64,000 nt of DNA from Escherichia coli (lineage in GTDB: Bacteria > Pseudomonadota > Gammaproteobacteria > Enterobacterales > Enterobacteriaceae). How positions within the stretch are numbered: position 1 is the stretch's first letter; each line of letters begins with the position of its first letter. This document shows, piece by piece, positions 1-63,519 of the stretch. Made by a program: the position numbers and the translations under genes. Location: NCBI GenBank assembly GCA_005400705.1, contig GCA_005400705.1_4079.1. One strand, 5' to 3'. A model generated the notes under the pieces. That model was not told where the DNA came from and ran no database searches. It saw only the letters and a list, made by a program, of their open reading frames with translations.

Positions 1-1
1 A

Positions 2-235: not shown

Positions 236-663
236 TGACAAGAGATGATTGTTTGTACATATGGGATATAATTGAAACTACACTTTCAAATCCAGAAAAT
301 TATAAAACACAAAAAAGACAACGACACAAAACATGGATAGATTTGTTCGTTGAGGACATACACGCAGTGACTATTTGGGATTCACCGAGGACATCAGCAT
401 CTACTCTGTTGGACAATGAATGCATTGATTGTATTAATTCCACTTTTCATCTCCACGGTACTACAATTTTTGGTACATTTCTGGATATTGAAAGTAAAGA
501 TGATATTGATTCACTTGCGTTACAATACCAAGTACTGTATAATACTAAATTAATTTACGATTTAGTACTAGCTTCTTATGTGTATAAATTAATGATGAAA
601 TATAATCATATTTCTGTTTCAGTTTATACTAAGGATATTCTTTCATTAAGAGACAAAACATGA
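235..663 (+). CDS. hypothetical protein (142 aa)
   Basis: ORF track; tight packing with neighbours on + strand. Confidence 0.5.
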   Translation: MTRDDCLYIWDIIETTLSNPENYKTQKRQRHKTWIDLFVEDIHAVTIWDSPRTSASTLLDNECIDCINSTFHLHGTTIFGTFLDIESKDDIDSLALQYQVLYNTKLIYDLVLASYVYKLMMKYNHISVSVYTKDILSLRDKT

Positions 664-1734: not shown

Positions 1735-1795
1735 ATTCGTACCAGGGGTTGACTCTGGTATTTTTGTATGATACATTGTCCTAAAGGAGAATTTT

Positions 1796-2347
1796 ATGAA
1801 CTACAATCATGATCTTTTTACATTATGTGCATCCAAATGTGTTGATGGATGGACAGATAAAATCAATACCATAATTCATCGATATCTGGTCTTTAGTTCT
1901 CGTGCACGAAGTGAGGGGGCTATGGATTTCAAATATACACTATCTATTGATGGTGTAACTATCCATGCAGACGAAGAACGTCTGAGCATTAATTTGTATG
2001 ATTCCTGTGTATTTGCTATTCACCAAAAGATGGGGAAAGGATGGGGTTGTAATAACATTAACTCAAAAGCTATCTTTTGGGTTGGTCACCACCAGACAGT
2101 ACTTGATCCTTCAATCAAATCTAATCTTTTATCCGATAATATGGTTTATGATTTATTGTACTCCGAAGAACAACATTTTCAGTTAAGTACATTACATGAT
2201 CTGGCACAGTACGAGGATTGTTACAAAACATTAGAACTATGCCATTCCCTTGAACTTAAAGATAAATTGATACAAGTTTACCCTTCATTCTTTCATGAAG
2301 AAGTACAAAGTACACTAGATCATATTTTATATGGATACGATAAATGA
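1796..2347 (+). CDS. hypothetical protein, FQLST-motif paralog family
   Basis: AAAGGAGA Shine-Dalgarno before ATG 1796; motif EEQHFQLSTLHDLAQYED. Confidence 0.55.
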   Translation: MNYNHDLFTLCASKCVDGWTDKINTIIHRYLVFSSRARSEGAMDFKYTLSIDGVTIHADEERLSINLYDSCVFAIHQKMGKGWGCNNINSKAIFWVGHHQTVLDPSIKSNLLSDNMVYDLLYSEEQHFQLSTLHDLAQYEDCYKTLELCHSLELKDKLIQVYPSFFHEEVQSTLDHILYGYDK

Positions 2348-2946
2348 GAAAAAGTTATCAAGAAGCTATTGACTTAATTCGTGAAGTTATCAAGGTGGCT
2401 CCTGCTGCTATTGAGTTCAAGAAGTCCATATACAAGAAGTATGGTTCAATGTCGAGTATGTGCTTTCAAAAGAAACGTAGAGCATTCACTACCCAGTACT
2501 GGAATGATTCTATCATCCTGAGCAATGAGACTCAGCGTATTTTAACACTAGAATCTGAACCTAATGAGTACGGGGAAGGGAACATTTGTGTACCTGATTA
2601 TGATGAAATTAACTTCAACTGCGGTGATTTTGAAACAACATTATTACTTCATGAGGGTTATCCAGAAGGTGATGTATTAGCTGAGTACAATCCAAAAACT
2701 AAAATTCTCAAAAGAGGAATCCAGTTCACTATTAATAACAAAGATGATGTTCAAGCAGCACTGATGCAACTGAGTACAAGTGAACCTATCACTATTAGTG
2801 TAGAAGAGTTATGGGGAATTATTTCAGTACTCAATGAGTGCTATAAAGTAAAATCATTGCGTAAACACAGCATTATATTACATACCAATATGGCAAATAT
2901 AAAATGTAAGCACATTCAAGAAATGGTGGTTCCAGATGGACTTTAA
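2344..2946 (+). CDS. hypothetical protein (200 aa)
   Basis: ORF track; ATGA overlap with upstream gene. Confidence 0.5.
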   Translation: MRKSYQEAIDLIREVIKVAPAAIEFKKSIYKKYGSMSSMCFQKKRRAFTTQYWNDSIILSNETQRILTLESEPNEYGEGNICVPDYDEINFNCGDFETTLLLHEGYPEGDVLAEYNPKTKILKRGIQFTINNKDDVQAALMQLSTSEPITISVEELWGIISVLNECYKVKSLRKHSIILHTNMANIKCKHIQEMVVPDGL

Positions 2947-3520
2947 AGAAATTGAAAGTAAATTAAAGTACTTCAAAGATATCAAACTTCTTTGGGAAAA
3001 GTATAAAGTTGATTACAATTTCAGTGATGATGACACTGTAAAAACAATTGAGATTAATATCAAAATCAAGTTCAAGAATAATAATTATGGTGAAGTAACC
3101 TTAAATCATACTGGTATATCACTCAAGGACTATGATGGTTCAACACTCGCATATTTTGACTTCACACCAGAACCAGGTGAAACACTACTTAGTGAGATAA
3201 ATTCCTATGACATGGAAGTGTTCGGCGGGAATCCGTTACTGTTCCGACTTTCTGAAGATTGGAGTGAAGAATACTACACTTACAAAGATGGTGTAGTACT
3301 TGACATTAATGGTGAAGTTGTGAATGACTTGGAAGAACGCTTGTTCCAAGAATTGTGTGTTTCAAATACTTCATATGCATACAATCATATCCTTGACATG
3401 TTTGATTTATATAGTAAAATAGATGCTGAAATGAATGCACATGGTATTCATTATCTTACAATCAACGACTATGCTCAACTTGAAACTGTAGTGAAAGCAT
3501 TGACTAAAGTACTGAAATAG
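2936..3520 (+). CDS. hypothetical protein (194 aa)
   Basis: ORF track. Confidence 0.5.
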   Translation: MDFKEIESKLKYFKDIKLLWEKYKVDYNFSDDDTVKTIEINIKIKFKNNNYGEVTLNHTGISLKDYDGSTLAYFDFTPEPGETLLSEINSYDMEVFGGNPLLFRLSEDWSEEYYTYKDGVVLDINGEVVNDLEERLFQELCVSNTSYAYNHILDMFDLYSKIDAEMNAHGIHYLTINDYAQLETVVKALTKVLK

Positions 3521-3529
3521 GAATGAAAT

Positions 3530-3943
3530 ATGAAACTGTATCATGCGAGTACTGTAAAAATTGATAACTTTTATATCCCGTATGGTGGTCTTCATATGGG
3601 AGGTAAACACAGTGCTTTGGAAGCTGCATTACGCAAGCTCAGAAGTCCACTGAACGTAGTAGACGCATGTACAGTATACTTGCATACCTTAGAAGTTGAT
3701 GTTGATAACGTGCTTCTGTGTGAAGATTTAGGCAGTGATGATGAGTGGCGTTCACTTATTGAGAATTGCACTGCTCAAGGTTATGATGCTGTTCAGTACA
3801 AAAATGATTACGAGCCAGACAATGTTCCTAGTTTTATGATTTGGGATGCATCTAAAGTTCGCATCATTGAAGTTGATGCTATGCATATGGATGAAGCTGA
3901 AATGATTATCGAAGATTTTCTTGATGAATATGAAGGTGTATAA
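3530..3943 (+). CDS. hypothetical protein (137 aa)
   Basis: ORF track; GGAATGAAATATG context. Confidence 0.5.
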   Translation: MKLYHASTVKIDNFYIPYGGLHMGGKHSALEAALRKLRSPLNVVDACTVYLHTLEVDVDNVLLCEDLGSDDEWRSLIENCTAQGYDAVQYKNDYEPDNVPSFMIWDASKVRIIEVDAMHMDEAEMIIEDFLDEYEGV

Positions 3944-4461
3944 TGATTGAACCTATGACAGTACTAGCACGTACTAAATTATTATTGAGGATTGGTGAGA
4001 TATTCACTGATATTTTGTACAGTGGGATTGATATACTTGAATTAGGCATTAAGCAACCGTGGGAATTAACCAAGTTCTCTGCGTTCCATCGTTTATCCTA
4101 TAAAGGGGAAACGGTTCTTGACTTGAACCCCAAAGCCAGATTCATGGACTATGCAGCTTTATATGGAACATGTGGAGGAATAACAAATGATTTCAAAGAA
4201 ATTAAAGTTCAAACAGCGTCACATGAATTTAATGATTTATTATATCCAGAATTTAAGTTAACAGAAGAATCATTCTTCCAGTACTCATTGATTTTAAAAG
4301 ATCTTAATGATTTAGAGTACTACAAAGAGTTAGTAGATATTTTTATTAATACACGACTTTCAAAAGATATTGTGATATTCTGGTATACAGAGCATGTTAC
4401 GGAGGAATTGCTTACTGAATTTCTTCTAAATATGACAGCTATAAAGGAGAAGTTATGTTAG
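3943..4461 (+). CDS. hypothetical protein (172 aa)
   Basis: ORF track; start overlaps upstream stop. Confidence 0.5.
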   Translation: MIEPMTVLARTKLLLRIGEIFTDILYSGIDILELGIKQPWELTKFSAFHRLSYKGETVLDLNPKARFMDYAALYGTCGGITNDFKEIKVQTASHEFNDLLYPEFKLTEESFFQYSLILKDLNDLEYYKELVDIFINTRLSKDIVIFWYTEHVTEELLTEFLLNMTAIKEKLC

Positions 4462-4928
4462 ATATTTTAGGAAACATCGACACTGCAAATTATTTTATTC
4501 AAGATGCATTGTTTAATACAGTACAACAAGGTTTAGAAGTTCACCACAATGTTTATCAGGGTGATGGATATTTTGTTGATATTATCGAGACACGTAAAAA
4601 TACATTTAATGTTAACATTACGACGCTTGGAAGACAGAACATTGCACGAATTTTAGTAAGTAAAGATGAAATAGTACTGAGATACAGTGCTAAGTTTATG
4701 TTGACTTATAAGAAAAAAACTGATATGTTCAGTACTAATTTATTTGATGAGCCATTTGACCTTGAAGATATTGAAGCTACTTTCTTTACTCAAAGTACTA
4801 TGGTAAAATACACTGATGTTCAATTTTCTGCTGATGTAATGTCAGAAACATTACAAATGATCAAGGTATTATTTTATGCATTTGAGCAATTTAGAGAAGA
4901 AAGAAACAAGGTTAACAACCACAGATGA
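4455..4928 (+). CDS. hypothetical protein (157 aa)
   Basis: ORF track; AAGGAGAAG before start. Confidence 0.5.
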   Translation: MLDILGNIDTANYFIQDALFNTVQQGLEVHHNVYQGDGYFVDIIETRKNTFNVNITTLGRQNIARILVSKDEIVLRYSAKFMLTYKKKTDMFSTNLFDEPFDLEDIEATFFTQSTMVKYTDVQFSADVMSETLQMIKVLFYAFEQFREERNKVNNHR

Positions 4929-5289
4929 ACTAATAGAGGCGATCACTAAGGAGTCAAAATACCATAAAGGTATTCGTCTATACTTTATAGATACTGGTTC
5001 GATGGAAGGTACATACATTTATGGTTCACAATCGTTGTCTTATGATGCAATGCCAAATAAACATGTTAAAATCTTTTTAGGTTCAAGTAATAAAACTTTC
5101 TTGACAATTAATGATAGCAGTGTTATTATGAATTCGTTGGGTCATGATAAGGTGGAAATTGATCTAAACACGCTGGAGGATATTGATTTTTTTCAATACG
5201 AGTGTTTAGGTGTTGACTTACATGGCATTAGTAGCGATATGATAAAATCATTAATCAAATATTTCGAAGGTGTTCATAAATGTATCTAA
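4876..5289 (+). CDS. hypothetical protein; true start uncertain (53-nt overlap with upstream ORF)
   Basis: ORF track. Confidence 0.4.
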   Translation: MHLSNLEKKETRLTTTDELIEAITKESKYHKGIRLYFIDTGSMEGTYIYGSQSLSYDAMPNKHVKIFLGSSNKTFLTINDSSVIMNSLGHDKVEIDLNTLEDIDFFQYECLGVDLHGISSDMIKSLIKYFEGVHKCI

Positions 5290-45296: not shown

Positions 45297-45911
45297 ATGA
45301 CTACATCTGAAAAGTACTGGTGGATTTTGGCTCATCCTAAATTCATAAACAAAGATATGGTTCCAGCTAGGATTGATATAGAACCTCATGATGTGTGTCC
45401 AATGACAAATCGAATTGAAGATTTCAAAGCATTGAATACAAAGACTCAATTTTGGGTAGAATTTCTTTCACCAATGTATATTGAGCAAGACGACGAATGG
45501 GTACAAGCACATGATTATCAATTGGATTGTGGTGGTGATACGTATGAAGAGGCGATTGATAAATTATACAAAAATGTGCTAAACACATATGGTGATTACA
45601 CCCAACAAGAAGCAGATAACACATTTAATAAGATCCATGCATTCAAATCTACTCCATCAATTTTTAATCCTACTAAAACTGTTTGGGAGGAACGACACAG
45701 TTGGAGTTCATGTGTAATCGATGAAGAAACCAAAGAAAAAATCATCGATGATATAAAAAATTTAAAAAATACGATAGAAGCCTTGCGTGAATTCATAATG
45801 TCTTGTACAATAGAACAACAGAAAGAGGCAAAGATACATTTGGAGAGTGAAGAATGTAAACTTTGGGTTCTAGAGAAATCTATTGAAAAGGGTATAGACT
45901 TAGACTTATGA
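45297..45911 (+). CDS. hypothetical protein
   Basis: GGAG 6 nt upstream of ATG 45297 (ORF-track start 45285 is TTG). Confidence 0.5.
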   Translation: MTTSEKYWWILAHPKFINKDMVPARIDIEPHDVCPMTNRIEDFKALNTKTQFWVEFLSPMYIEQDDEWVQAHDYQLDCGGDTYEEAIDKLYKNVLNTYGDYTQQEADNTFNKIHAFKSTPSIFNPTKTVWEERHSWSSCVIDEETKEKIIDDIKNLKNTIEALREFIMSCTIEQQKEAKIHLESEECKLWVLEKSIEKGIDLDL

Positions 45912-49756: not shown

Positions 49757-50089
49757 ATGGATTTAAAGCCAATTGTGGTTAACAAATACAAAGAACCGTA
49801 TGATGTGTATATTGGACGTGGGTCTAAATGGGGAAACCCATTTACCCATATTAAAGATAAACAAACCAAAGCCGAGTTCATTGTTAGTACAAGAGAAGAA
49901 TCAATTGAAAAATTCAGAGAATACATTATTGAACGTATTTCTTGTGGAGAAGTTAAGATTGATGAATTACTTGAACTCGCAGGGAAACGCCTTGGTTGTT
50001 TCTGTAAACCAAAATCATGTCACGGCGATGTTCTTGTCGAAATAGTGAGTGCAATATTAGATGAATTACCAGACGATAATCAAGGATGA
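49757..50089 (+). CDS. hypothetical protein between nrdD and nrdG
   Basis: ORF track; GRGSKWGNPF motif. Confidence 0.5.
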   Translation: MDLKPIVVNKYKEPYDVYIGRGSKWGNPFTHIKDKQTKAEFIVSTREESIEKFREYIIERISCGEVKIDELLELAGKRLGCFCKPKSCHGDVLVEIVSAILDELPDDNQG

Positions 50090-50531
50090 TTTAGTAAATG
50101 GAGAGGGCGTTCGCTGCTCTTTATTTGTTAGTGGGTGTTCGCACGGATGTGATGGTTGCTTCAATGAAGAAGCATGGGATTACAGAAGTGGTCAATTGTT
50201 CAGTACTGAAACAGTTGAGATTATACTACAGGAACTAAAAAAACCATATGTTAGTGGTTTGTCACTTCTAGGCGGCGATCCATTAATGAAAAAGAATATA
50301 GATGAAGTTTTAAATCTATGCAAAGTAGTTAAAGAAACTTATCCTAGTAAAACTATTTGGTGCTGGAGTGGGTATACTTTAGATGAGATTATGAAAAATC
50401 ATGCTAAAGATATACTTCAGTACTTAGATGTATTAGTTGATGGTAAGTTTATTGAGTCCGAAAAGAATTTAAAATTACCTTTTCGTGGTTCAAATAATCA
50501 AAGAATACTATATAAAAATAAAGATTTTTAG
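50061..50531 (+). CDS. nrdG: anaerobic ribonucleotide reductase activating protein (radical SAM)
   Basis: CSHGCDGCFN radical-SAM cysteine cluster; adjacency to nrdD. Confidence 0.85.
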   Translation: MNYQTIIKDDLVNGEGVRCSLFVSGCSHGCDGCFNEEAWDYRSGQLFSTETVEIILQELKKPYVSGLSLLGGDPLMKKNIDEVLNLCKVVKETYPSKTIWCWSGYTLDEIMKNHAKDILQYLDVLVDGKFIESEKNLKLPFRGSNNQRILYKNKDF

Positions 50532-50533
50532 CA

Positions 50534-50558
50534 TAAGCACCCGTTGGGTGCTTTTTTA
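50534..50558 (+). terminator. rho-independent terminator
   Basis: stem AAGCACCC...GGGTGCTT followed by TTTTTT. Confidence 0.75.
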
Positions 50559-50564
50559 TTATGT

Positions 50565-50572
50565 ATATAAAT
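50565..50572 (+). promoter_or_regulatory. T4-type late promoter TATAAATA
   Basis: exact TATAAATA ~35 nt upstream of first tail-fibre-like gene. Confidence 0.45.
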
Positions 50573-50607
50573 ACATTAACTAATATCTAATTTATAAGGG
50601 ATATATA

Positions 50608-53304
50608 ATGTCAAAGAAAATATATGGTGGCTTAGATGTCACACATAATGTGACAGTTAATGGTAAAAGAACAATTCAAGGAATAAATGAACAAGTTTTT
50701 GATTCCAACGGTAACTTGGAATTAGATACTTATTCCAGAGATGAAGTACTAGATATAGTAAGTATGATACCAATCTCCCATTATGGTTCACAAAACTATC
50801 TACCTGCGGGTGTTTCTGGGGATTTCAATGGTGCATCAGAAAACCAGTCACAACGTAGAAATAAAATTTTATTAGAAAACGATGGTACACTAGTGCTTTT
50901 ACGTAGTGGGACAAACGGTAGTGTTGAGGGATTATTTTATTCATATTTGGCTAACGCATTATCAGTTGATGACATGAGCCGTACAATTAACACCAGTCGT
51001 CAATACAAGCCTGGGTTTTTTGGTTCAAATAGAGTTGCGATTGGTTTATACAATACTGATCCAAATATTTTACTCGGTAGATATATTGATACTTCTAACA
51101 GTACTAATGGTTTGTTCATATCAATTACCAATGGTACATTAGATGATAAATTGCATACTGGTTTTTTCGTTAACCAAGCAGATATATCACCGGAAGGTGG
51201 TATTGAATATGCTATGATGGCAGAAGATGGTTCTATATATGTTTTTAACGTACTTAATGAAAATAACCAACTACAATTAGTTGTTGTTAAAGTTGTTTAT
51301 AATATAAGCAATGGTACTTATACTGCAACTCGAATTACTGGATGGACTACTAAAACATTTTATAACACGACATATTCTGCACAAAATAATATGGTTATTA
51401 CTAATCAGGTAACATCAACAAATATTGCTGATAAACCTTATGCTTATGTCCCACAAAATCTACGCGGTATTGGGATTTACATGACATCAATTGATTTATA
51501 TGTTGCACAGCAGCCAGGAACGCAGAATTTCCGCTTTAGAATGAACGGGGATGCTTGGTTTACAATGGCAACATATAATACACGTCCACAGCATAGTTAC
51601 AGTTTTGTGTTCAATATGAGTACTAAACAATGTACATTAGATGCAGGTAACGATATTGGTTCATATCAAGCACCATTAGTTATAACTAATACTGGTTCGG
51701 CATTAGTTCCTACTGGTAACGTTTTAAATAACGATCCATTGTATAACCATGCAAATGCAAGAAACATTTATAGTTCATATTTTTATTTGAATTCTGGTGA
51801 AGCTTTTTGTACTGCATGTCCAAACTTAGCAGAACCATTACTTATGCAAAAAGCTAAGTTTCCTATTCAAATAGTTTATAGTATGCTGAATGTCCGTGCT
51901 GTACTTTCTACTGACTTCAAAGGTGGTATAGTTCGCCCGTCTTTTGGTTCAGCGGTTGGTTCATTTATTAATGGTGTAGAATTACTACCAGATAACAGTA
52001 CTAAACAATATTCACGTGCATCAGGTAGTGGTGGATTTAGACCATCATATGCAGTTCATAAAAGTACTCCTAATTTTACATTTAAATCATTATCTTTAGG
52101 AACAATACAAGGTTATGAACCTACAGTTGAACGTGCTAATGTTGATGATAATGCAAATAATAGAATTTTTATTAGTAGTATTTCTGGGTCAACTGTCACA
52201 ACCAATGGTGGTATTTTTATGGTTGGGCAACGTTATTCACAATCATTATCCTATGATAAAAACTTAAATGGCACAGGAATTATAAGCGTTACACAATCAG
52301 TACTGGACAATTTTAGAAATACTGAATATGCCAAAGTTCTAAGTGATTGGAATTTATCAGCACAAGCATACCGTGATATGACACTATTTGTTCCACAACA
52401 AACAGACATTCCAGCTTTTGTTATGTTGAGTACAATTACTAATGATTATAGAAACTATATTAGAATTGCTGAAGTTAATGTCAATACTAGAGTTGGTAAT
52501 ATTACATCTATTACATTTAAGCGTTTAGTACTTGAGAATACGTATGGTAATAACTTTACACCAACTGGGAATGGTTCGATTGCATCTTCTTCTGTTGGTT
52601 TGACCATATATGATGGTGGTTCATTCTACTTCATTGGTGGTTCTGACCCATTATCACATCCAACAATAGGTAATACTGCAACTCATCAATTTAGAGCATA
52701 TGTAACTAAATCAACTGCACAATTTACAAGTTTTATAATTACTGGATCTCATGCCAGTTATGAACAAGGAAGTCAACCAGCAGCATTACCTGGTATTGGT
52801 TTTGGAATTTTTGAACCAATGGATTACTCAAATAAAATGACATTCAAAAAATATGGAACAACGATTGCAGACTATAATAACTGGACTGCACAAGGTAGCC
52901 CAATTAACGTAGTATCCCAGGACGTTGCTCAAGGGTTTATTGTATATTTTACAGAGGAAACACCAGTTATTCTTTCAGGTAAGTCATTTTCACTACCAGT
53001 TTCAAATATTGATTTGAGAACTATTAAGTCTAATCCAGCAAATACAACATTTTATGTATATGTTAAATTGGAACAAGGATTGGCAAACTATTACATAACT
53101 ACTGATGTTATTTCTGAAACAGGAACAACTGCATATAATATTTTTTGGATAGGTACAATTCAAACTAATGCAATTCAAATCGAAACAATTAATATACAAA
53201 AACGTTCCCGTTTAGATATATTTGGTGCTTCACTTGAATCAGCAGGTTCATCGTTCCCAGTTAGCTACGGTCTACCATCACAAACAGGAACCATAAACTG
53301 GTAA
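50608..53304 (+). CDS. tail-fibre-like / receptor-binding structural protein, paralog 1 (898 aa)
   Basis: AAGGG before ATG; long Asn/Thr/Ser/Gly-rich sequence; conserved N-terminal block (DGTLVLLRSGTNGS) and C-terminal tail (GSSFPVSYGLPSQTGTINW) shared with next two genes. Confidence 0.5.
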   Translation: MSKKIYGGLDVTHNVTVNGKRTIQGINEQVFDSNGNLELDTYSRDEVLDIVSMIPISHYGSQNYLPAGVSGDFNGASENQSQRRNKILLENDGTLVLLRSGTNGSVEGLFYSYLANALSVDDMSRTINTSRQYKPGFFGSNRVAIGLYNTDPNILLGRYIDTSNSTNGLFISITNGTLDDKLHTGFFVNQADISPEGGIEYAMMAEDGSIYVFNVLNENNQLQLVVVKVVYNISNGTYTATRITGWTTKTFYNTTYSAQNNMVITNQVTSTNIADKPYAYVPQNLRGIGIYMTSIDLYVAQQPGTQNFRFRMNGDAWFTMATYNTRPQHSYSFVFNMSTKQCTLDAGNDIGSYQAPLVITNTGSALVPTGNVLNNDPLYNHANARNIYSSYFYLNSGEAFCTACPNLAEPLLMQKAKFPIQIVYSMLNVRAVLSTDFKGGIVRPSFGSAVGSFINGVELLPDNSTKQYSRASGSGGFRPSYAVHKSTPNFTFKSLSLGTIQGYEPTVERANVDDNANNRIFISSISGSTVTTNGGIFMVGQRYSQSLSYDKNLNGTGIISVTQSVLDNFRNTEYAKVLSDWNLSAQAYRDMTLFVPQQTDIPAFVMLSTITNDYRNYIRIAEVNVNTRVGNITSITFKRLVLENTYGNNFTPTGNGSIASSSVGLTIYDGGSFYFIGGSDPLSHPTIGNTATHQFRAYVTKSTAQFTSFIITGSHASYEQGSQPAALPGIGFGIFEPMDYSNKMTFKKYGTTIADYNNWTAQGSPINVVSQDVAQGFIVYFTEETPVILSGKSFSLPVSNIDLRTIKSNPANTTFYVYVKLEQGLANYYITTDVISETGTTAYNIFWIGTIQTNAIQIETINIQKRSRLDIFGASLESAGSSFPVSYGLPSQTGTINW

Positions 53305-53315
53305 AGGATTACATA

Positions 53316-53903
53316 ATGGCATATAAAATAAGAGCAGACCTTAAGGCAATGCAACAAGTTACAGTTCAGGGTAAAAGTACTGGTCTTGGTGTATTAGGTA
53401 ATAATATGACTTATTACCCAACAAATTCAAATGGGGAATGTACATTCCCCTCTATTACCAAAGATGAAGTTAACTTTATTGTCAATGGATTACCACTTAC
53501 ACAATACGGAGAATTGTATGATGACGCTAGTCTAAATATTACTTCATCAGGCTATAGTCTTACATTTAATAGACAGATACCATCATTTATTGGTGGTTAT
53601 CTTTATAAATTTCCAGCAGTTTCTATTTTTGCTTCAACTGTTTCATCTGGAACACAAACACAATACGTATATGCAACGTTAGTTCTCGGTGAACCAATTT
53701 ATAAAATATCACCAACACAAATACAAGAATCTGAAATTATAATGTTTATTGGAACACTGACCGTTGGTACAAGTGGTATTACAAATATAAACATTAATAA
53801 AGTATCCAGATTTAGTACATATAGACCTAGTGTTACACAAAAAGGTTCTTCATTCCCAGTCAGTACTGGAAAACCATCAGAAACTGGTACAATTGGTTGG
53901 TAA
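53316..53903 (+). CDS. short paralog of tail-fibre-like family (195 aa)
   Basis: AAAGGA before ATG; C-terminus GSSFPVSTGKPSETGTIGW. Confidence 0.5.
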   Translation: MAYKIRADLKAMQQVTVQGKSTGLGVLGNNMTYYPTNSNGECTFPSITKDEVNFIVNGLPLTQYGELYDDASLNITSSGYSLTFNRQIPSFIGGYLYKFPAVSIFASTVSSGTQTQYVYATLVLGEPIYKISPTQIQESEIIMFIGTLTVGTSGITNININKVSRFSTYRPSVTQKGSSFPVSTGKPSETGTIGW

Positions 53904-53919
53904 ATTAAGGAAAAGAAAG

Positions 53920-56649
53920 ATGTCATCAAAACGAATTATAGGAAGTGCCGAGATCCTTGGGAACTTGGCAATTGGACAAAGGTACGCTATGCGTACTTTT
54001 AATGGAACCTCACCGAATGCCAATACTGGAATTGTTCAATATCCAATATATAAGCGTTCAGAAGTTCAAAGTATTTTAGATATGTTGCCTATATCACGTG
54101 TAGGAGAAATGGATTACTTACCATTAAACGTAAGTGGATCGTATGAAGGTGCTACACCTATGTCAAGTGACCAAGTAGTTCAGCCAACAATTATTGAAGA
54201 TGATGGAACCGCCGTTGTTCTGCGTAGCGGAACCAATGGTAGTACTAAAGGTTTTTATTATTCATTTATACGAGATCTCCGAAATATAACTATGATTTCA
54301 CAAGAAAGTGTTATTTCAACCAATTCAATGTATAAACCTTCAATTATGAGTAGTACTGAAAATATTAAGTATTTTATTGGCTCTAATGGTTATGAGATGC
54401 TTGGATGTTTAAGTACTGAAGATAATTATATTTTTACTATAACCAATGGCACATTTAACGAAATATCACATATTCATGCTAAAGTTCCAAGTACTTCTTT
54501 TGGTAATGATATGCCAATATATACACATATTGTTGGGACAAAGGTTTATATTTGGTGTAAAGATAAAAGTGTTTCTAATTTAGGATTAGCACTTTCAATT
54601 TATACAGTAGAGCTAAGTGATGTGAAAGCAAGCTCAATGGCATCATTAACAAAAGTTACTGGGTTATCAGGTCAAACTGTTCGAAACACAAGTTATTCTG
54701 CATCTAATAACATAAGAGTGTTCGATAAATTATATAGTGTTGGTACTAGCTCGGATTCATTATTCGAAGTTACATCACCAGTATCACGTGTAGAATTTTC
54801 AGACTATACAGACTTTAACATTCAAGCCAACGTTAGTCCTGATTTATCAAAAATACGTGTAACTTTATATCCAACACATCGAATGGTTACACCTTTGTAT
54901 ATTTCAACAGTTTATGGTACTGGAATAAGTTTTGTTTATAATATAAACTCAAAATCTATGTCACTAGATGGTAGTGCTCGTGCACCTGCAACTGTTTCAT
55001 ATAATAATGGATTTCAAGTTTCTAACCCATTTGAAATTAATATGGTCAACTTCACAGGGACAACTGCTGCTGGTGTATTAGGAAACGCAGGTGGTTTATG
55101 TCAAACTAAAGATGGTTTGGTATTTGCATCTAAATTTAGATGGAGTTCAACTGAATTTTATGGTCTACAACGATATAAGGTTAGTGGGACACCGTTTGAT
55201 TCATGGGTTGCCAGTACTAGAACCGCAAGTAACGTTATAAATGCAAACGTTTTACCAGTTTTTGGTAGTGCTGTTGGTGCAAACCTTTTAGGTGTACGTT
55301 TCATCGATAATAGAAAAATATTATTAGCATGTTCTGGTACGTATGATGATGTAACATATAATTATAATAATACTGTTTTTTCTGAAATAGGTTCACAACC
55401 AACATATCAATATAACTCAGTTCAAAATAATACTACATTAAATGGTTTTGCACCACAATCTAATCGTAAACAAATAGGCGATGATTTTACATACACTGCT
55501 ATGATTTCTCTTGTTGATACCGATGGTAGTGTTAGATGCTATGGAACATCATTCATTGAAGGTGTATATAAAACAAGTGGTGGATTATTAAACCCAGATA
55601 CTTTAGAATTTGATGAAACATATACAATAGAACCAACGGTATTAGAATCATTAAAACAAGATATTTTTGCTAATCTAGGAAACTCTGGCATTGTTGGTAC
55701 ACTATCTGGACAAATTGTATTATATTATGTACCTGATAATACTTTTTCTAAATCCATCGCAGTAGTTTCAGCATATAATCTTAACAATAACCAAGGTTAT
55801 GCAATCTATGCCGAAGTTGATGTTGTATTATCTGGAACTAACATAACTTCAGCTACATTGGTGAGTACTAGATATGAGACACTTAGTTCTGTTACAGGAA
55901 TTATTACTGAAGCATATATGAAACGTTGTACTGGTCTAACAGTTGCAAAATATTCAGGATTTGGTTACATTGGTGTTGATGCTGTTCATCAATTTTCACA
56001 ACCAGGTAATGCACAATTTAAGATGATGATAGCTAAAACAGTAGATGGTGTCATAACATCAAATCGTTTTTTATCATCTAGTTACATCCAACTTGGTGCA
56101 GCATATCAACATGGTGTTATTCCTGGTGTTGGTTTTGGATATTACAATTTTCAAGATTCTGACTATCAAACCAAATCTGTATTCAGCGTTTTTGGTACAA
56201 CATCTGCTGAAATGGATGGTTTAATTAGTGGAAATGGTAGCGTTAAAGAAAAGATTGTGGTAGTATCACAAGACGTTGCACAAGGATTCTCAGTGTACTT
56301 TACACGTGAAGTTCCGGTGTTTTTAGGTGGAATTTTCGACAGACTACCTATACAAAGTGTTGATTTAAGTACTGTAAAAAGTAACCCAGCTAATACTACG
56401 TTCTATTTGTATATACAAATGAACAGGAATACTAAGAAGGCGTCATATGTTATTAGTACTGAAACAATTGATGAATCTTTAACTAGCACTTACATTGGTA
56501 AGATAGTTACTGGAACTTCAGGAATAACTTCAATTGATACAGAAAAAGTAACTCGTTTTTTGACATATCGTCCAAGTACAACGAAACGTGGTTCAGCGAT
56601 ACCTGCCAGTACTGGTGTACCATCAGGTCCAGGTACACGTTGGAAATAA
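53920..56649 (+). CDS. tail-fibre-like / receptor-binding structural protein, paralog 2 (909 aa)
   Basis: AAGGA before ATG 53920 (ORF-track start 53830 overlaps upstream gene); DGTAVVLRSGTNGS and C-terminus GSAIPASTGVPSGPGT. Confidence 0.5.
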   Translation: MSSKRIIGSAEILGNLAIGQRYAMRTFNGTSPNANTGIVQYPIYKRSEVQSILDMLPISRVGEMDYLPLNVSGSYEGATPMSSDQVVQPTIIEDDGTAVVLRSGTNGSTKGFYYSFIRDLRNITMISQESVISTNSMYKPSIMSSTENIKYFIGSNGYEMLGCLSTEDNYIFTITNGTFNEISHIHAKVPSTSFGNDMPIYTHIVGTKVYIWCKDKSVSNLGLALSIYTVELSDVKASSMASLTKVTGLSGQTVRNTSYSASNNIRVFDKLYSVGTSSDSLFEVTSPVSRVEFSDYTDFNIQANVSPDLSKIRVTLYPTHRMVTPLYISTVYGTGISFVYNINSKSMSLDGSARAPATVSYNNGFQVSNPFEINMVNFTGTTAAGVLGNAGGLCQTKDGLVFASKFRWSSTEFYGLQRYKVSGTPFDSWVASTRTASNVINANVLPVFGSAVGANLLGVRFIDNRKILLACSGTYDDVTYNYNNTVFSEIGSQPTYQYNSVQNNTTLNGFAPQSNRKQIGDDFTYTAMISLVDTDGSVRCYGTSFIEGVYKTSGGLLNPDTLEFDETYTIEPTVLESLKQDIFANLGNSGIVGTLSGQIVLYYVPDNTFSKSIAVVSAYNLNNNQGYAIYAEVDVVLSGTNITSATLVSTRYETLSSVTGIITEAYMKRCTGLTVAKYSGFGYIGVDAVHQFSQPGNAQFKMMIAKTVDGVITSNRFLSSSYIQLGAAYQHGVIPGVGFGYYNFQDSDYQTKSVFSVFGTTSAEMDGLISGNGSVKEKIVVVSQDVAQGFSVYFTREVPVFLGGIFDRLPIQSVDLSTVKSNPANTTFYLYIQMNRNTKKASYVISTETIDESLTSTYIGKIVTGTSGITSIDTEKVTRFLTYRPSTTKRGSAIPASTGVPSGPGTRWK

Positions 56650-56655
56650 ATTTAA

Positions 56656-56684
56656 AGCTCGTCTATTGACGGGCTTTTCTTTTA
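56656..56684 (+). terminator. rho-independent terminator
   Basis: stem AGCTCGTC...GACGGGCT (one G-U pair) followed by TTTTCTTTT. Confidence 0.65.
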
Positions 56685-56688
56685 TGTG

Positions 56689-56694
56689 TATAAT
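56689..56694 (+). promoter_or_regulatory. -10-like TATAAT
   Basis: GTGTATAATTG upstream of gene at 56717. Confidence 0.3.
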
Positions 56695-56716
56695 TGAATA
56701 AAAATAGGAGGAAATT

Positions 56717-57283
56717 ATGGTCAAATCTTTATTACCGCCACCAAAACGTCACAAAATCAAAGAAATGAAAGAACAACGTACATTAAAGATGTACATCAAT
56801 TTAGTTAAGTTACTGTGTAAAAGTCCATCGCTCAAAGCAGAGTTTAAAACTGATGATGACCGCAAAGCACTAATTGAGATGAAGTATATGCTCAGTAAAA
56901 TGTCCTTTTACAAATTTGTAAAAGAATACGCATCTGACCCATTTAGTCCTCGTTGGAGAGCCAAACCAAGAGAGTATTTTTACGGTGGTTCATATACGGA
57001 TATCATTCAAGACACAGTGATGGGAGTTGAATTTGAAATCGATTATGATCCGAATGGTGTGGAAAGCTGGCCGATTGAGAAACGTTTACCAAGTGAAGAA
57101 GAAATTTATGTTTATGCAAGAAAACTTTCAAATTTCAGTTCAAGAATTACTCTAGGCAATTTAGATTCATTTATTATTTTCTATACACGTGTTGGTGTAG
57201 ATAAAATGGTAACTAAACTCAATGAACTTTCATTACAACAAAAACAGATTAATGCATACAAAGACATTACTGATTTATACTAA
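56717..57283 (+). CDS. hypothetical protein, first of three tandem paralogs
   Basis: GGAGGAAATTATG; shared block KSPSLKAEFKTDDDRKALIEMKYMLSK. Confidence 0.55.
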   Translation: MVKSLLPPPKRHKIKEMKEQRTLKMYINLVKLLCKSPSLKAEFKTDDDRKALIEMKYMLSKMSFYKFVKEYASDPFSPRWRAKPREYFYGGSYTDIIQDTVMGVEFEIDYDPNGVESWPIEKRLPSEEEIYVYARKLSNFSSRITLGNLDSFIIFYTRVGVDKMVTKLNELSLQQKQINAYKDITDLY

Positions 57284-57289
57284 TGAGGA

Positions 57290-57811
57290 ATGGATATGTT
57301 TTTTGGATCAGTTGGAAAACAAAACAGTACTTTAATTTGGCATGAAATTATCTTTAAAATTATATCTAAAAGCTACTCACTAAAGGATATTATTACCACA
57401 GATAATGATAGACGTATCCTGTTAGATGCAAAATATAAATTGAGCAAACACCCTTTACTTTCTTTAATCATTGATTACGTTAATGATTATGAATCTAGTC
57501 GTTGGAAGTGGGAAGACGGCGGTTTATTTCGTGGAAAAACATTCTACGGTGCGGAACGATATGTTTTCAGTGATACATCAAATGGCGTTAAGTTTGCTAT
57601 TAGAAACTTTAACTCCAAAGAAAATGATTATCTTGAAAGTGGAGTGAAAGTATATATCGATAATAATAGCAATGTACTAACATATGACGAATCACTAATT
57701 ATGTTACAAATAATGCGTGGAGTTGAAGGTGTAAGAAACAACCTTACTAAATTGAAAATCCAGCAAAATGATATACATAATAGACAGAAAATTAAGGGTT
57801 TATATAAATGA
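57290..57811 (+). CDS. hypothetical protein, second of three tandem paralogs
   Basis: shared block KSYSLKDIITTDNDRRILLDAKYKLSK; start 57290 or 57296. Confidence 0.5.
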   Translation: MDMFFGSVGKQNSTLIWHEIIFKIISKSYSLKDIITTDNDRRILLDAKYKLSKHPLLSLIIDYVNDYESSRWKWEDGGLFRGKTFYGAERYVFSDTSNGVKFAIRNFNSKENDYLESGVKVYIDNNSNVLTYDESLIMLQIMRGVEGVRNNLTKLKIQQNDIHNRQKIKGLYK

Positions 57812-58317
57812 TTTCATTTTTCAAAAAGAAACAAAAAGTTGATGAAACCGGATTAGAATCGTTTCTGTGGACTCTTATCATCAAAAAAAGCCCATTGATG
57901 AAAGAATATGCTATCAATGATGCTAATAGAAAAACTATCATTGAATACAAATATGAATTATCTAAATGTGATCCAATTGTTTATCACTTTGCGAAGTACT
58001 GTTCAAAAAATTTATCGGATATCACAATCGACCACGAGTCAGTCCCGATGAGTTTTCCTTATGGTGATTGGGTAGATACTTTTGATATTTTTGATGGGTC
58101 AAATGGTTTCAGTTTCTTTTACTCGTCAAATAAAGCAAATGTTCGTATTAAAACAGACATAGGTTGGACACAGCATAGCTCAAATAAAGAAGATTATAAT
58201 TTATTAGCTGACGTATACCGAAGTGTGAAGAATTCAAAGGATATTGATGAAAGAATTAAAAAGCAAAATCGTATATCTTTATCACTTGAAACATACAAGT
58301 CAAAGTATGGTGGTTAA
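57808..58317 (+). CDS. hypothetical protein, third of three tandem paralogs
   Basis: shared block KKSPLMKEYAINDANRKTIIEYKYELSK; ATGA overlap. Confidence 0.5.
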   Translation: MISFFKKKQKVDETGLESFLWTLIIKKSPLMKEYAINDANRKTIIEYKYELSKCDPIVYHFAKYCSKNLSDITIDHESVPMSFPYGDWVDTFDIFDGSNGFSFFYSSNKANVRIKTDIGWTQHSSNKEDYNLLADVYRSVKNSKDIDERIKKQNRISLSLETYKSKYGG

Positions 58318-59950: not shown

Positions 59951-60027
59951 CATACATGAGTATAATGGTACTAAAAATGCCATTATACTCGATAAATACT
60001 CAATATAAATTAACGCAAGGATTAAGT

Positions 60028-60156
60028 ATGGCACAACAAATTTTCACAGATATCCACACTACCGGAGTTATTAAATTTCAAAATAATTTTTCAGGTGCAA
60101 CTGGTGTAGACATTAAAAATGATGGTTTTAACATTGTCAGTACTCGGATCTATTGA
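60028..60156 (+). CDS. short ORF, possibly the N-terminal part of a frameshifted gene continuing at 60119
   Basis: AAGGA 7 nt upstream of ATG 60028; TATAAATT late-promoter-like site at 60005; ORF-track variant starts at 59956. Confidence 0.3.
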   Translation: MAQQIFTDIHTTGVIKFQNNFSGATGVDIKNDGFNIVSTRIY

Positions 60157-60655
60157 TGGTGAAGATAGTTCTCTTAGTGATTCTGTGATTGCATCATTCG
60201 GAACTAATAAAAACAGTTCTTTTATTATATCTGGATGGACTGGAATGACTGATTCTGAAAATAATGTTAAGATAAAAGCTAAATCTACTAACGAGAATCA
60301 TGAAACAGAATGGGTAACATTATATGATAGTGCAAGTAATAAGTTATATAATGTACTAAGTTCTAATAACATTTTAATTAATCCACTGTCGGGTAATGCT
60401 GTTTTTAATATTAATTTATCTGATAGAAATACTACTATTTCGATTGGTGCGGCTCCTACTGAAGTTTATTCAATTACCATCCTATTAACACAACAAACAG
60501 GTTCAAACCTAGTTAATTGGGGTTCTAATGTTAAATGGTCATATAACAGACCAGTTGTTCTTTCTTATGAAATTGGTGAAAAAGATATTATTTCATTAGA
60601 AACATATGATAAAGGAGTTACATGGTACGGTGCATTAATTAGAGCAGGAGTATGA
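60119..60655 (+). CDS. probable virion structural protein (Ser/Asn/Thr-rich)
   Basis: ORF track; start overlaps upstream ORF by 38 nt in a different frame. Confidence 0.45.
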   Translation: MMVLTLSVLGSIDGEDSSLSDSVIASFGTNKNSSFIISGWTGMTDSENNVKIKAKSTNENHETEWVTLYDSASNKLYNVLSSNNILINPLSGNAVFNINLSDRNTTISIGAAPTEVYSITILLTQQTGSNLVNWGSNVKWSYNRPVVLSYEIGEKDIISLETYDKGVTWYGALIRAGV

Positions 60656-60656
60656 T

Positions 60657-63446
60657 ATGTTAAACAATAATATTGATAATATTGTACAACTTCTTTATGG
60701 GCATCACAAATTTATTGAAAGAAATACTGGTGATACAATAGACCCAACAGTACAACATTATGTGGTGAACAATCAGGGTGTTTTGGCGAACAACCGTCAT
60801 TTTATTAACTATTCTGCAATGGAAGGTCAACCAAACGGTGACGGAACAACAGAAGGTCAAAGTCTATTAATTTTAGGATACATTTATGCGTATCTGGCAA
60901 CAAATGATCCAATGTTTTTAGATAAGGCAAAGTGGTATTGGGACGCATATCATCAGTACTTTTATGCTGGACGTGAATTACCAGATCCACCTACACCACT
61001 ACAATGTAACTGGATAGTTAATGCCAAAGAACCTATATTGGCTAACTGGCCTTTAGCTGATGATGGCTGGCCCACACATGGTGGTTTCAAGGGTGTAGAA
61101 TTTACATTTACAAATGGACAATGTAAAATACCACATGGTGCACCTTATTATGGTCAGTTCTTGGATAAAGTAACATTTGCATTCAAAGGTGCTTTAGCAT
61201 GGAACCAAATAAATGCGTCAGTAAAAGCATTATTACCAGATGGTAGTGTTGATTGGGATACACCAGGTGAACAATATGATGTTGACTGGATTATCGATTT
61301 CATGGGTAGAAAAATCGACTGGGATGGTAATATTTTAGCAGAAGGTTTTGACGAATCTGAAAAAGGAACTGTTCAATTAAAGAATACAACAATTAATGGT
61401 GTATATAAATTAAATTTTGCAAATCGTCAACCAGTAGAATATGGTGGTGTGATAATTCAACGAAATGAAATGCAACACAACCGCCCTCTTCATGTTCCAA
61501 TTGATTTGGAATTTGCTGATAACGCATCAGATGCAGAATTATGGTTTAGTGATGCTTCTTATTTGTTATATAAAATAACAAAAGAAAGAAAACATTATTT
61601 GGGTTGGAAATGTTCACTACTAACGTGTTATGCTTATGGTGATATTGACTCCAGAGATAAATTTTTCAGACAAAGTACAATTGTAACCACACCATTCACT
61701 GATGGTATTTCCTATGAATATTTTTATCCTAGTGATGCTATTGCTAAGTTTGGTAGAAATTCTCTAGGATATATTACTATCAGGCAAGACCAAAGTGCAC
61801 AAAGTACTATGGAACAACAAGCTATTTGGTTCAGGGTCAATGCTGATTCTAAATTACTTGTAGACTATGGTGGTGTATGTGATGATGGTAAGCCGTTATC
61901 ATTTAAACCAGTACTGGAATTGTCAAAAACAAAAAATGACCATGATGTTGTTCGTTATCGTTGTGGCTTACCGGAAAGTAAAGACCAAAATATCACACAT
62001 TCATTAACACCTTTAAGTGCATTTGTTAGAGAAAAGAAAGCAGATGGTTCCCCTTATATAATTGCTGATAGTAGAATTGTTGTTCCTTATGGTGCAGCTA
62101 CATCCGAAATGATATATAGTACTGATATATTAGTTACACGCCGAGATACCATTAATCAGTTAGTTTGTGGTGAAGATGATGGTGCTGTTATTGGATTTTG
62201 GCTATTAGCAACAAATAAGTCTGAAGTTAAATCTTTTACATATCGTTCATATGAAGATGATTACAATATAAGAATTGTAGATGATAATGGTTGGAGATGG
62301 TGGTGGATGATTCCTGCAACACACGGGGAATGGACTACAATCACACTAAGTTCCGATACATTACGTTTATCTGGGTATCAGCCAAATCATCCAAGTTCTG
62401 ACCCAAGACCAGATGCACCAGTTTATAGTGAGCTAGAAGATATTACTATTTTACCTGATACAACCCCAGTAGATGGTGTTGCTGCAATAATTGATTGGTA
62501 TTGTATTAATGACATTCCAGAATTATATACGGATGCTGATGGTGATGACTATACTATGACATTTTCAATAACAATTGCAGGTGAATCACCATATACTGCA
62601 CAGTTAGGGGATTGTGTAATCAAAGATTATTTGTTAAACTCATTGCATTACACACCAGGAACAATACCATTTTCTAACATCACTGACCCGTATGCGAACC
62701 AGTATTCAGGATGGCGTGGTTTACCGTATCCAGGTTATCAATATCCTGTGATATATTGTTTTAAAGACCAGCCAGTAGATAACACACGCTTAGGAAACAT
62801 GTTAAGCTTTATGAAAGATTCCCAAACATGGTTTACTCAACAATTCGGTACTGTTGGTCCGTGTGCACAAGCATATGTTTGGAACCGCTGGGATAACTTA
62901 AAGTATGGTGAACCAGATACATTTACTATGCTACATTGGGGTGATCAAGCATGGAGTGGGTATGAACCACGTGCGTTCTTTGGGGCTGCCAGAGCATGGC
63001 AAGAACTCGCAGAGAGAGGAATTGAACCACCAGCAGATCTTGTTGAATTTTGTGAGAATTGGATTCACTTTTTAATTCAATTTCAAAAAGATAATGATGG
63101 TCGTTCACCAACAATCTTCAATAAAGATGGCACAGTTGAAGGTCCAGATTGGGACTTTACGGGTCATATGTGTGGGTTGTGGTTAGCTGGGGCTTGTGCT
63201 GCTGGGTTGGCTGGATGTAAAATAGAAGGTCTAACAACACTCGCTGATAACTTAGTTCTCGAACTTCAAAAGAATTATGTTATTGTAAATCCAGGTTCAC
63301 CAATGAATGGTTCATGGAGTCCAGCAGTTAGAGAAGGTACTGATAATGGTATGTTTTTTGGTTTCTGGGCAGGTGAGAATATGCGTGGATTGGGATTATA
63401 CTCAATGTACCGCTTAAACACACCAAATCGTTTCCGTGATTTATAA
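60657..63446 (+). CDS. large Trp-rich protein (929 aa); possible carbohydrate-active or tail-associated protein
   Basis: GCAGGAG before ATG; C-terminal third is Trp/Gly/aromatic-rich in a way reminiscent of glycoside-hydrolase toroid domains; weak inference. Confidence 0.5.
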   Translation: MLNNNIDNIVQLLYGHHKFIERNTGDTIDPTVQHYVVNNQGVLANNRHFINYSAMEGQPNGDGTTEGQSLLILGYIYAYLATNDPMFLDKAKWYWDAYHQYFYAGRELPDPPTPLQCNWIVNAKEPILANWPLADDGWPTHGGFKGVEFTFTNGQCKIPHGAPYYGQFLDKVTFAFKGALAWNQINASVKALLPDGSVDWDTPGEQYDVDWIIDFMGRKIDWDGNILAEGFDESEKGTVQLKNTTINGVYKLNFANRQPVEYGGVIIQRNEMQHNRPLHVPIDLEFADNASDAELWFSDASYLLYKITKERKHYLGWKCSLLTCYAYGDIDSRDKFFRQSTIVTTPFTDGISYEYFYPSDAIAKFGRNSLGYITIRQDQSAQSTMEQQAIWFRVNADSKLLVDYGGVCDDGKPLSFKPVLELSKTKNDHDVVRYRCGLPESKDQNITHSLTPLSAFVREKKADGSPYIIADSRIVVPYGAATSEMIYSTDILVTRRDTINQLVCGEDDGAVIGFWLLATNKSEVKSFTYRSYEDDYNIRIVDDNGWRWWWMIPATHGEWTTITLSSDTLRLSGYQPNHPSSDPRPDAPVYSELEDITILPDTTPVDGVAAIIDWYCINDIPELYTDADGDDYTMTFSITIAGESPYTAQLGDCVIKDYLLNSLHYTPGTIPFSNITDPYANQYSGWRGLPYPGYQYPVIYCFKDQPVDNTRLGNMLSFMKDSQTWFTQQFGTVGPCAQAYVWNRWDNLKYGEPDTFTMLHWGDQAWSGYEPRAFFGAARAWQELAERGIEPPADLVEFCENWIHFLIQFQKDNDGRSPTIFNKDGTVEGPDWDFTGHMCGLWLAGACAAGLAGCKIEGLTTLADNLVLELQKNYVIVNPGSPMNGSWSPAVREGTDNGMFFGFWAGENMRGLGLYSMYRLNTPNRFRDL

Positions 63447-63477
63447 CTTGACATAGAAAAAGTAATTATGTATAATT

Positions 63478-63507
63478 AGAGAACTTCATATGGAGTTCTC
63501 TTTTTTA
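63478..63507 (+). terminator. rho-independent terminator
   Basis: stem AGAGAACT...AGTTCTCT followed by TTTTTT. Confidence 0.75.
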
Positions 63508-63519
63508 TAAGGTGATAAA

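Follow-up and report, generated by a model that had tools for sequence, protein, structure and literature searches.

A tandem trio of putative tail-periphery proteins with a shoulder-like anchor in a Rak2-like jumbo coliphage

Shoulder domains, which attach their proteins to a baseplate, are known from the receptor-binding proteins (RBPs) of lactococcal phages p2 (ORF18, PDB 2wzp) and 1358 (4l92), from SPP1 gp22 and from the N-terminal domain of the T6SS protein TssK. A typical shoulder stands N-terminally, ahead of neck and head, and docks as a homotrimer on an adaptor (Dit arm or TssFG). Among jumbo phages, phiKZ carries the paralogs gp131 to gp135 with a shared N-terminal anchor, of which gp131 ends in a seven-bladed propeller, for which host contact and a place at the outer baseplate have been proposed (PMC13250141). 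Here we have analyzed a 64-kb stretch of DNA from Escherichia coli assembly GCA_005400705.1 (hereafter the window), in which three tandem genes, g1, g2 and g3, occupy positions 50608 to 56649. We consider it probable that they form a late operon of host-adhesion proteins at the tail or baseplate periphery, built on a shoulder-like anchor that carries beta-propellers in g1 and g3. The source phage is identified by its nucleotide identity as a PBECO4/121Q-type (Asteriusvirus-type, Rak2-like) jumbo coliphage: the Asteriusvirus jumbo myophages PBECO4, phAPEC6, BF17 and SP27, among others, are 99.5-99.7% identical to window positions 50000-57000, as against 95% for 121Q/G17 and 78% for WPEC3/Ecwhy_1.

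Set beside the described systems, the locus is not a new kind of system; it probably encodes RBPs or baseplate proteins whose shoulder-type anchor is interrupted by a double propeller, together with a conserved paralog that has none. Unlike the p2 RBP and TssK shoulders, with which they have no sequence similarity, the full-length proteins have ~65 N-terminal residues that apparently complete the sandwich across an insert of ~710 residues, and the head is a predicted double propeller in g1 and g3 where lactococcal RBPs have a small jelly-roll. The phiKZ gp131-gp135 group is likewise a jumbo-phage paralog array with common anchoring parts, including a beta-propeller, but its domain order differs and no sequence relation to our trio is detectable (tblastn finds EL-like phages and Goslar, not phiKZ). 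True homologs are instead found among members of PHROG 3573/7449/26864, namely Goslar gp026, CBB gp147-149, GAP32_143-145, Agricanvirus gp19/gp20 and the tandem ~1180-aa proteins of EL-like phages, which have an E-x-DGT...LR-x-x-T[ND] motif and the C-terminal module in common and likewise occur as tandem paralogs. The LR-x-x-T[ND] part reads GTN in g1 and g3 but SATN in Goslar gp026, which also lacks the GSSFPVS...W tail. Two features set the coliphage locus apart: the middle paralog of Asteriusvirus and allied phages is cut to 195 amino acids (aa), and in Rak2-like phages the family genes lie next to nrdDG, not in the baseplate module.

Shared termini and a predicted double propeller

A first-pass annotation of this stretch had proposed three paralogous tail-fibre-like genes with conserved ends and unrelated centres behind a late promoter. 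The open reading frames (ORFs) themselves are borne out, all on the plus strand, tightly packed and with terminators on both sides. g1 (50608-53304, 898 aa) is a full-length paralog of the CBB gp147 lineage and corresponds to phAPEC6 gp323c; g2 (53316-53903, 195 aa) is a propeller-less paralog made of an N-terminal segment (residues 1-67), a short linker, a C-terminal domain (77-167) and a tail (168-195); g3 (53920-56649, 909 aa) is a second full-length paralog, of the CBB gp149 lineage, with the tail end ...GT-RWK. Gaps of 11 nucleotides (nt) between g1 and g2 and of 16 nt between g2 and g3 separate the genes, each of which has a Shine-Dalgarno sequence ahead of it. For g3 the start is an ATG with the ribosome-binding site AAGGAAA; a longer form from the GTG at 53830 would overlap g2. 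The opposite strand of the cassette holds no ORF of note.

That the genes are paralogs behind a late-type promoter is supported, both by homology at their termini and by the octamer TATAAATA at 50566-50573. Over the C-terminal ~120 aa, g2 is 43% identical to g3 (120 residues, E = 7e-24) and 36% identical to g1 (125 residues, E = 9e-17), and the first ~62-67 residues are related as well (g2 versus g1 E = 5e-7; shuffle z = 6-14). This similarity is not compositional, because no shuffled sequence among 500 attained the observed scores, a possibility that the first-pass annotation had itself named as a ground for doubt: each terminal segment scores 6-22 standard deviations above its shuffled counterparts, with z of 12.9-14 for the g1 N-terminal segment and 15.6 for the g1 tail against the g2 tail. 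Residues 1-67 of g2 match family positions 1 to 62-68 and residues 77-195 match family positions ~773-898, so that its description as a minimal version holds. The C-terminal tail GS[SA][FI]P[VA]S[YT]G.PS..GT is likewise present in all three proteins, whereas the N-terminal block DGT[LA]V[LV]LRSGTNGS...YS[YF], also ascribed to all three, occurs in g1 (from residue 92) and g3 and is absent from g2. The claim of unrelated central regions fails: g1 and g3 align as a single high-scoring segment pair of 945 columns (28% identity, E = 4e-63), and their centres alone (654 and 663 residues) still align over 688 columns at 23% identity (E = 4e-11). Counted by g1 residues, the two are 31% identical over the N-terminus (1-62), 46% over 63-118, 22% over the first propeller (119-440), 28% over the second (441-772), 49% over the C-terminal domain (773-870) and 36% over the tail (871-898). 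Family hidden Markov models match each protein from end to end, with PHROG 3573 at E = 3.5e-274 for g1 (residues 1-898) and 3.3e-267 for g3, and phrog_26864 at 4.4e-115 for g2 (residues 1-195).

An AlphaFold2 monomer model of g1, built from an alignment of 31 homologs (mean predicted local distance difference test score, pLDDT, 85.5; predicted template modelling score 0.79), places these segments in a common plan. The N-terminal segment common to g2 and g3 (residues 1-62; 50608-50793, plus strand, as are the parts that follow) begins with a disordered stretch (1-25), contains a helix (44-53) and a strand (56-59), and closes with an invariant P55...G60 (PISHYG) motif. The central body (residues 63-772; 50794-52923) is all-beta from ~85 to 770 and holds ~13-14 four-stranded sheets, which we read as two predicted beta-propellers spanning ~710 residues, also present in g3; it contains the most conserved block of the family, E90-x-DGT...LR-x-GTN. 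A beta-sandwich follows (775-870 in the model; residues 773-870; 52924-53217), a widely conserved module recovered in 539 clusters. The tail (residues 871-898, ending ...GSSFPVSYGLPSQTGTINW; 53218-53301) is conserved, with invariant G880, G888, P890 and W898, although disordered in the monomer model (pLDDT < 50 over 872-898). Across 17 long members, E90, R99, Y111, H183, Y211, K340 and R509 are invariant.

The predicted helix and beta-sandwich superpose on the p2 RBP shoulder and the TssK N-terminal domain. Scores in the fold comparison were 8.8 for the lactococcal phage p2 RBP, 7.8 for the cyanophage A-1(L) long tail fibre, 7.0 for the phage 1358 RBP, 6.8 for SPP1 gp22, 6.2 and 6.0 for the HFTV1 tail fibre, 5.9, 5.3 and 4.8 for TssK and 5.5 for a phi812 baseplate protein. 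For the propellers, the best fold matches are lectins and glycan-processing enzymes, and this likeness is generic: Foldseek of g1 against PDB returned only generic propeller matches with low TM-scores, and no phiKZ chain. Some homologs carry membrane-protein annotations, which we rejected given a maximum Kyte-Doolittle 19-residue average of <= 1.59.

A profile of the terminal module retrieved 539 clusters at 50% identity (316 at E <= 1e-10), falling into length classes of ~190-200, 225-250, 900-1000 and 1150 aa, with some proteins up to 2488 aa. The ~235-aa class (e.g., P0077) has a different, fibre-like N-terminal extension and passes from ...PVSRYG.L into the C-terminal domain with junctions placed as in g2. 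That the N-terminal segment of g2 runs straight into the sandwich, and that a second short class has the same junctions, suggests that the two termini are one attachment module, with the propellers an insertion in it.

The second short class can also be seen in its genomic context. In a Logan contig (SRR27386400; L015, positions 1-4960), a long member of at least 947 aa is followed by a 235-aa propeller-less paralog with the same N-terminal extension as its long neighbour, and then by a tail-fibre gene. Since this arrangement belongs to an unrelated metagenomic phage, propeller-less paralogs beside full-length ones have arisen independently at least twice, an argument for a function of the bare module in its own right. 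The ~250-aa "tail/virion structural" proteins that precede the long paralogs in Kc263 and MIZ-Pa99 were considered as further shoulder-only relatives and rejected (hhalign probability < 1%).

Descent of the 195-residue gene and divergence among relatives

Three full-length genes (~895-946 aa) stand at the post-nrdG position in CBB (Mimasvirus), Yersinia phage fHe-Yen9-04, pEa_SNUABM_12 (Eneladusvirus) and the metagenomic L010, and P0048 is the middle gene of a trio of 902, 914 and 912 aa. A long-short-long order is found in Asteriusvirus, fENko-Kae01, A4, the Salmonella phages Munch, PHA46 and SE_PL, and Erwinia phage Hallingskeid. By position, g1 corresponds to CBB_147, g2 to CBB_148 and g3 to CBB_149, and CBB_148 is the best full-length match of g2 at both ends (residues 1-67 to 1-67, and 79-195 to 798-916). 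In a tree built on 186 shared columns, 95% bootstrap unites the short genes with CBB_148 and MG_2, both of them full-length middle genes, while g1-type and g3-type clades receive 95% and 87%; furthermore, a 4-residue N-terminal insertion is common to the short genes and the full-length middle genes. This orthology, together with the clade support, indicates that the three lineages predate these genera. Most parsimoniously, then, g2 would be the middle paralog minus ~730 central residues.

As judged by its substitution pattern, g2 is not decaying and stays under purifying selection. It is kept as an ORF of 195-202 aa at 46-100% identity in 12 clusters, and ratios of nonsynonymous to synonymous divergence (dN/dS) between the window and WPEC3 are 0.09 for g1, 0.20 for g2 and 0.13 for g3, reaching 0.42 where the comparisons are the most distant and saturated; the ranges for g1 and g3 are 0.04-0.09 and 0.05-0.13. 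Several apparent short genes were set aside: in Proteus phage 10 and pEa_SNUABM_48, g2 is matched over nearly its full length inside the C-termini of 1005-1154-aa proteins, and the matches in pEa_SNUABM_47/49/50 and Serratia phage BF join the C-terminus of one gene with the N-terminus of the next.

Among orthologs, conservation is highest at the termini and lowest in the first propeller (g3 and its fENko-Kae01 counterpart are 35% identical there and 93% in the tail). Compared with WPEC3, the cassette stands out as more divergent than the other sequence in the ~50-kb alignment (Mann-Whitney p = 0.0014); within it, the first propeller of g3 (54286-55269) is 67% identical, below every interval outside the cassette, while g1 is average. 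The comparison with G17 (L012) has a different shape. Flanks, g2 and most of g3 are 99-100% identical, whereas 50599 to ~53000 falls to 84-94%, and synonymous divergence (dS) is 0.51 in g1, 0.02 in g2 and 0.09 in g3, with a dN/dS of 0.04 for g1. From this pattern of identities, the g1 body is best read as having been swapped by recombination for a diverged orthologous (96%-identical) allele among Asteriusviruses. It is the nearest thing at this locus to the exchange of modules that had been proposed, yet it is replacement by a homologous allele and not a swap of different modules.

Virion association and competing explanations

Two family members have been detected in virions by mass spectrometry (MS), an ortholog of g1 in phAPEC6 and a homolog in Goslar, which supports the expectation that the family is virion-associated. 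phAPEC6 gp323c is g1, with DNA 99.7% identical and a published mass of 98.62 kDa against a computed 98.54 kDa. Goslar_00026 (gp026), a 93.6-kDa homolog with the ESDGTIVLLRSATN signature, is covered to 31.8% by 21 peptides in the virion MS table, where its copy number per virion is estimated at 8.5/12.8/20.1, much like that of known 12-copy proteins; it is unplaced in the cryo-electron microscopy model, whose peripheral baseplate is largely unmodelled. In addition, the Eneladusvirus MS table has consecutive entries of 99.7, 99.0 and 97.3 kDa in all three phages, with similar peptide counts, and the pEa_SNUABM_12 trio has computed masses of 99.8, 99.1 and 97.3 kDa. The "structural protein" label of CBB gp148/gp149 (L002, NC_041878) was not used as proteomic support, because neither protein is in the MS table of that phage. 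Beyond the Rak2-like phages, family members again come in tandem and adjoin genes for the baseplate or tail fibres: Desertfox gp19/20 adjoin a baseplate assembly protein, EL-like phage MIZ-Pa99 and Proteus phage 10 show similar baseplate/tail-fibre synteny, the Goslar homolog lies between the S74/YomR-like fibre genes gp25 and gp29, and the unit on the Logan contig lies directly upstream of its tail-fibre gene (PHROG 6921, E = 2e-45). Abundance in Goslar and phAPEC6, taken with this synteny, points to a low-copy component of the tail or baseplate periphery and not to abundant whiskers of sheath and capsid.

In the arrangement we propose, one late transcription unit would run from a terminator through a late promoter and g1-g2-g3 to a second terminator. 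The attachment module would consist of the N-terminal ~65 residues, the C-terminal ~95-residue beta-sandwich and the conserved flexible tail, and would anchor all three proteins, in low copy, at the tail or baseplate periphery. Host surface glycans would be contacted by the propellers of g1 and g3, which are predicted to be lectin-like; we regard glycan binding as a real possibility, at slightly less than even chances. g2 would take an equivalent anchoring position without a propeller, either as a structural part or adaptor or as a subunit of a mixed oligomer, although a hetero-oligomer that contains g2 is a doubtful proposition. Equally speculative is a more specific form of the idea, an architecture for receptor binding not recognised before in jumbo phages, in which a double propeller splits the shoulder-type attachment domain and the three co-transcribed paralogs form a single hetero-oligomer (a g1:g2:g3 heterotrimer on the shoulder module, for example), one subunit having shed its propellers repeatedly and independently to give an asymmetric adhesin.

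Several observations weigh against this account. The assignment of two propellers, and of the N- and C-terminal halves to one domain, derives from secondary-structure strings, aligned lengths and deletion boundaries; Pfam and NCBIfam gave no family match and PDB no sequence match. The shoulder of p2 is N-terminal, whereas the g1 sandwich stands at residues 773-870 of 898 and is C-terminal or split, and the propeller contains the most conserved block of the family, an unusual feature if it is a variable receptor-binding site. As for the proteomics, the support for phAPEC6 gp323c in purified virions is thin (4 peptides, 5.6% coverage), and the phAPEC6 proteome could not report g2 or g3 because the record (MK817115, L001 11305-14112, equivalent to window ~53304-56111) leaves g2 and most of g3 unannotated, a spurious 37-aa coding sequence apart. 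The Eneladusvirus match is by mass only, and CBB_147-149 are not listed in the MS table of CBB itself (Table 4).

The main rival, to which we give a minor share of belief, is that these are purely architectural proteins of the peripheral baseplate (cf. the phiKZ gp26/gp27/gp130 scaffold) that brace it or dock fibres, with g2 as a small brace. The outer baseplates of phiKZ and Goslar do comprise many large low-copy proteins, much of them unmodelled, and Goslar gp026, at ~12 copies, is unassigned in the model; the position of the most conserved block in the propeller, the polar residues that are invariant across lineages, and a g1-g3 cassette that is 99.6-99.7% identical between E. coli and Salmonella isolates would all suit such a role, as would the presence of separate tail-fibre genes close by at 60119-63446. 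However, the top propeller matches are lectins and glycan-processing enzymes, the extreme divergence of the first propeller of g3 and the recombinational replacement of the g1 body are more typical of host-contact proteins, and neither sequence nor fold matched any modelled phiKZ baseplate chain, save for an insignificant match to gp49. The same invariant residues could instead make an active site, if the propellers belonged to a virion-borne glycosidase or depolymerase that degrades surface polysaccharide at adsorption. Likeness to GH33- and GH43/32/62/130-type propeller folds was indeed found; but it is generic among 5-6-bladed propellers, and the family has no Asp-box, no FRIP motif and no Pfam or NCBIfam hydrolase match, so we hold an enzyme to be quite improbable.

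The remaining explanations are still harder to reconcile with the locus. The first-pass annotation saw tail-fibre RBPs whose fixed attachment and trimerisation ends carry exchangeable, unrelated specificity centres, implying multiple receptors or host-range switching, and part of that picture stands: termini are better conserved than centres among paralogs (46-49% versus 22-28%) as well as among orthologs, the centre diverges faster, and the common termini resemble the attachment (shoulder) domain of RBPs in the predicted fold. The 84-94% segment of g1 between 99-100% flanks would also fit. The exchange itself is not supported, since the centres are homologous with the same predicted fold, each of three ancient, positionally conserved lineages retains its own centre across genera, and the one replacement seen brought a 96%-identical ortholog allele under a dN/dS of 0.04 and not another module; nor are the proteins predicted to be fibres, as the model is globular and all-beta, and neither recognised tail-fibre domains nor a fibrous repeat shaft were found in g1-g3. 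With g2 also lacking the quoted N-terminal block, the "unrelated modules" part is largely refuted and we consider the whole scheme very unlikely. Just as remote is the suggestion that the proteins build, or form the base of, the hair-like whiskers that phAPEC6 and CBB bear on sheath and capsid. The whisker proteins of these phages are not yet identified and the family is virion-associated, but it is also present in Goslar, EL-like phages and Agricanvirus, adjoining baseplate and tail-fibre genes, and its low abundance (~13 copies in Goslar, 4 peptides in phAPEC6) and globular predicted fold speak against such a role. We retain host-adhesion proteins of the tail or baseplate periphery as the favoured reading.

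Transcription signals, neighbouring units and meaning

The trio follows nrdD/nrdG, amid genes of nucleotide metabolism. Directly upstream, at 50535-50553 (plus strand), lies the intrinsic terminator of the nrdG unit, with an 8-bp stem of 5 GC pairs and a T-run, whose hairpin aagcaccc...gggtgcttttt is kept in G17, WPEC3, Kae01, A4, CBB and Yen9-04; a second intrinsic terminator, with a 10-bp stem that is kept in relatives, closes the three-gene unit at 56654-56677 (plus strand). Both are annotated in the G17 record. Between the first terminator and g1, 34 nt ahead of the ATG, is a T4-late-type promoter motif TATAAATAC (50566-50574, plus strand), whose octamer equals the T4 late consensus. The T4 late promoter is gp55-dependent, and the CBB paper (PMC5259590) describes ATAAATA ahead of genes for structural proteins, as well as a gp55-like sigma factor encoded by CBB.

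As with the T4 promoter, virion genes follow the octamer, and the motif is otherwise avoided in the window, which has 2 octamer copies in all against 12.9 expected. The conserved core in Rak2-like phages, compared with that of T4, is ATAAATAC: it is invariant in 8 divergent phages (window, G17, WPEC3, fENko-Kae01, A4, CBB, Yen9-04 and L010), standing 29-34 nt before the first ATG and just past the terminator hairpin while flanking bases vary, with L010 at the same distance. ATAAATA is ~9-fold depleted in the 64-kb window (5 copies against 46.1+-7.6 expected, one copy only on the minus strand), which is consistent with avoidance of a promoter signal. A late promoter before g1 is thus well supported by sequence comparison, and its late timing and gp55 dependence are putative. 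For the ATAAATA copies at 21563 and 41154, no gene is evident at the distance expected of a promoter.

A second ATAAATAC, at 59992, likewise stands behind a hairpin, 29 nt before a 42-aa ORF and ahead of virion and tail-fibre genes. The unit to which it belongs (59964-63519) comprises this hairpin and promoter-like motif, the 42-aa ORF (60028-60156), which is the phAPEC6 virion protein gp315c found by MS, and tail-fibre/tail genes at 60119-63446 that encode a 178-aa tail-fibre protein (PHROG 32568) and a 929-aa tail protein (PHROG 2871; phAPEC6 gp314c). It is wholly missing from WPEC3, whose flanks abut (subject 45610 to 45615). Judged by this presence and absence, the tail-fibre cassette at 59964-63519 is a better host-range candidate than the g1-g3 trio.

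Downstream of g3, at 56654-56694, the terminator hairpin holds a -35 element, TTGACG, followed at a 17-nt spacer by TATAAT (an 11/12 match to sigma-70), and this overlap is kept in G17, WPEC3, A4, Kae01 and Yen9-04. The late cassette thereby appears wedged between early or middle units. Next to it, at 56717-58317, lie three small tandem paralogs of 188, 173 and 169 aa (PHROG 18641/7868, with no assigned function) that share a motif ...D(D/N)(D/N)R(K/R).(L/I)(L/I)..KY.LSK and are unusually conserved against WPEC3 (93% nucleotide identity).

Rak2-like jumbo coliphages are candidate therapy phages whose adsorption proteins are poorly defined, and the genes of this trio, although the family is widespread, are annotated as "hypothetical" in nearly all records and uncharacterised. 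Our analysis adds phylogenetic support for ATAAATAC as a late promoter in these phages, makes sense of the unusual 195-aa gene as a conserved derivative without propellers, and offers the family a testable structural assignment, a predicted RBP-shoulder-like anchor with lectin-like propellers. It also offers candidates for unassigned density in jumbo-phage baseplates; were the split-shoulder hetero-oligomer to prove true, part of the peripheral baseplate that is still unmodelled in Goslar-like and Rak2-like phages would be explained by this family.

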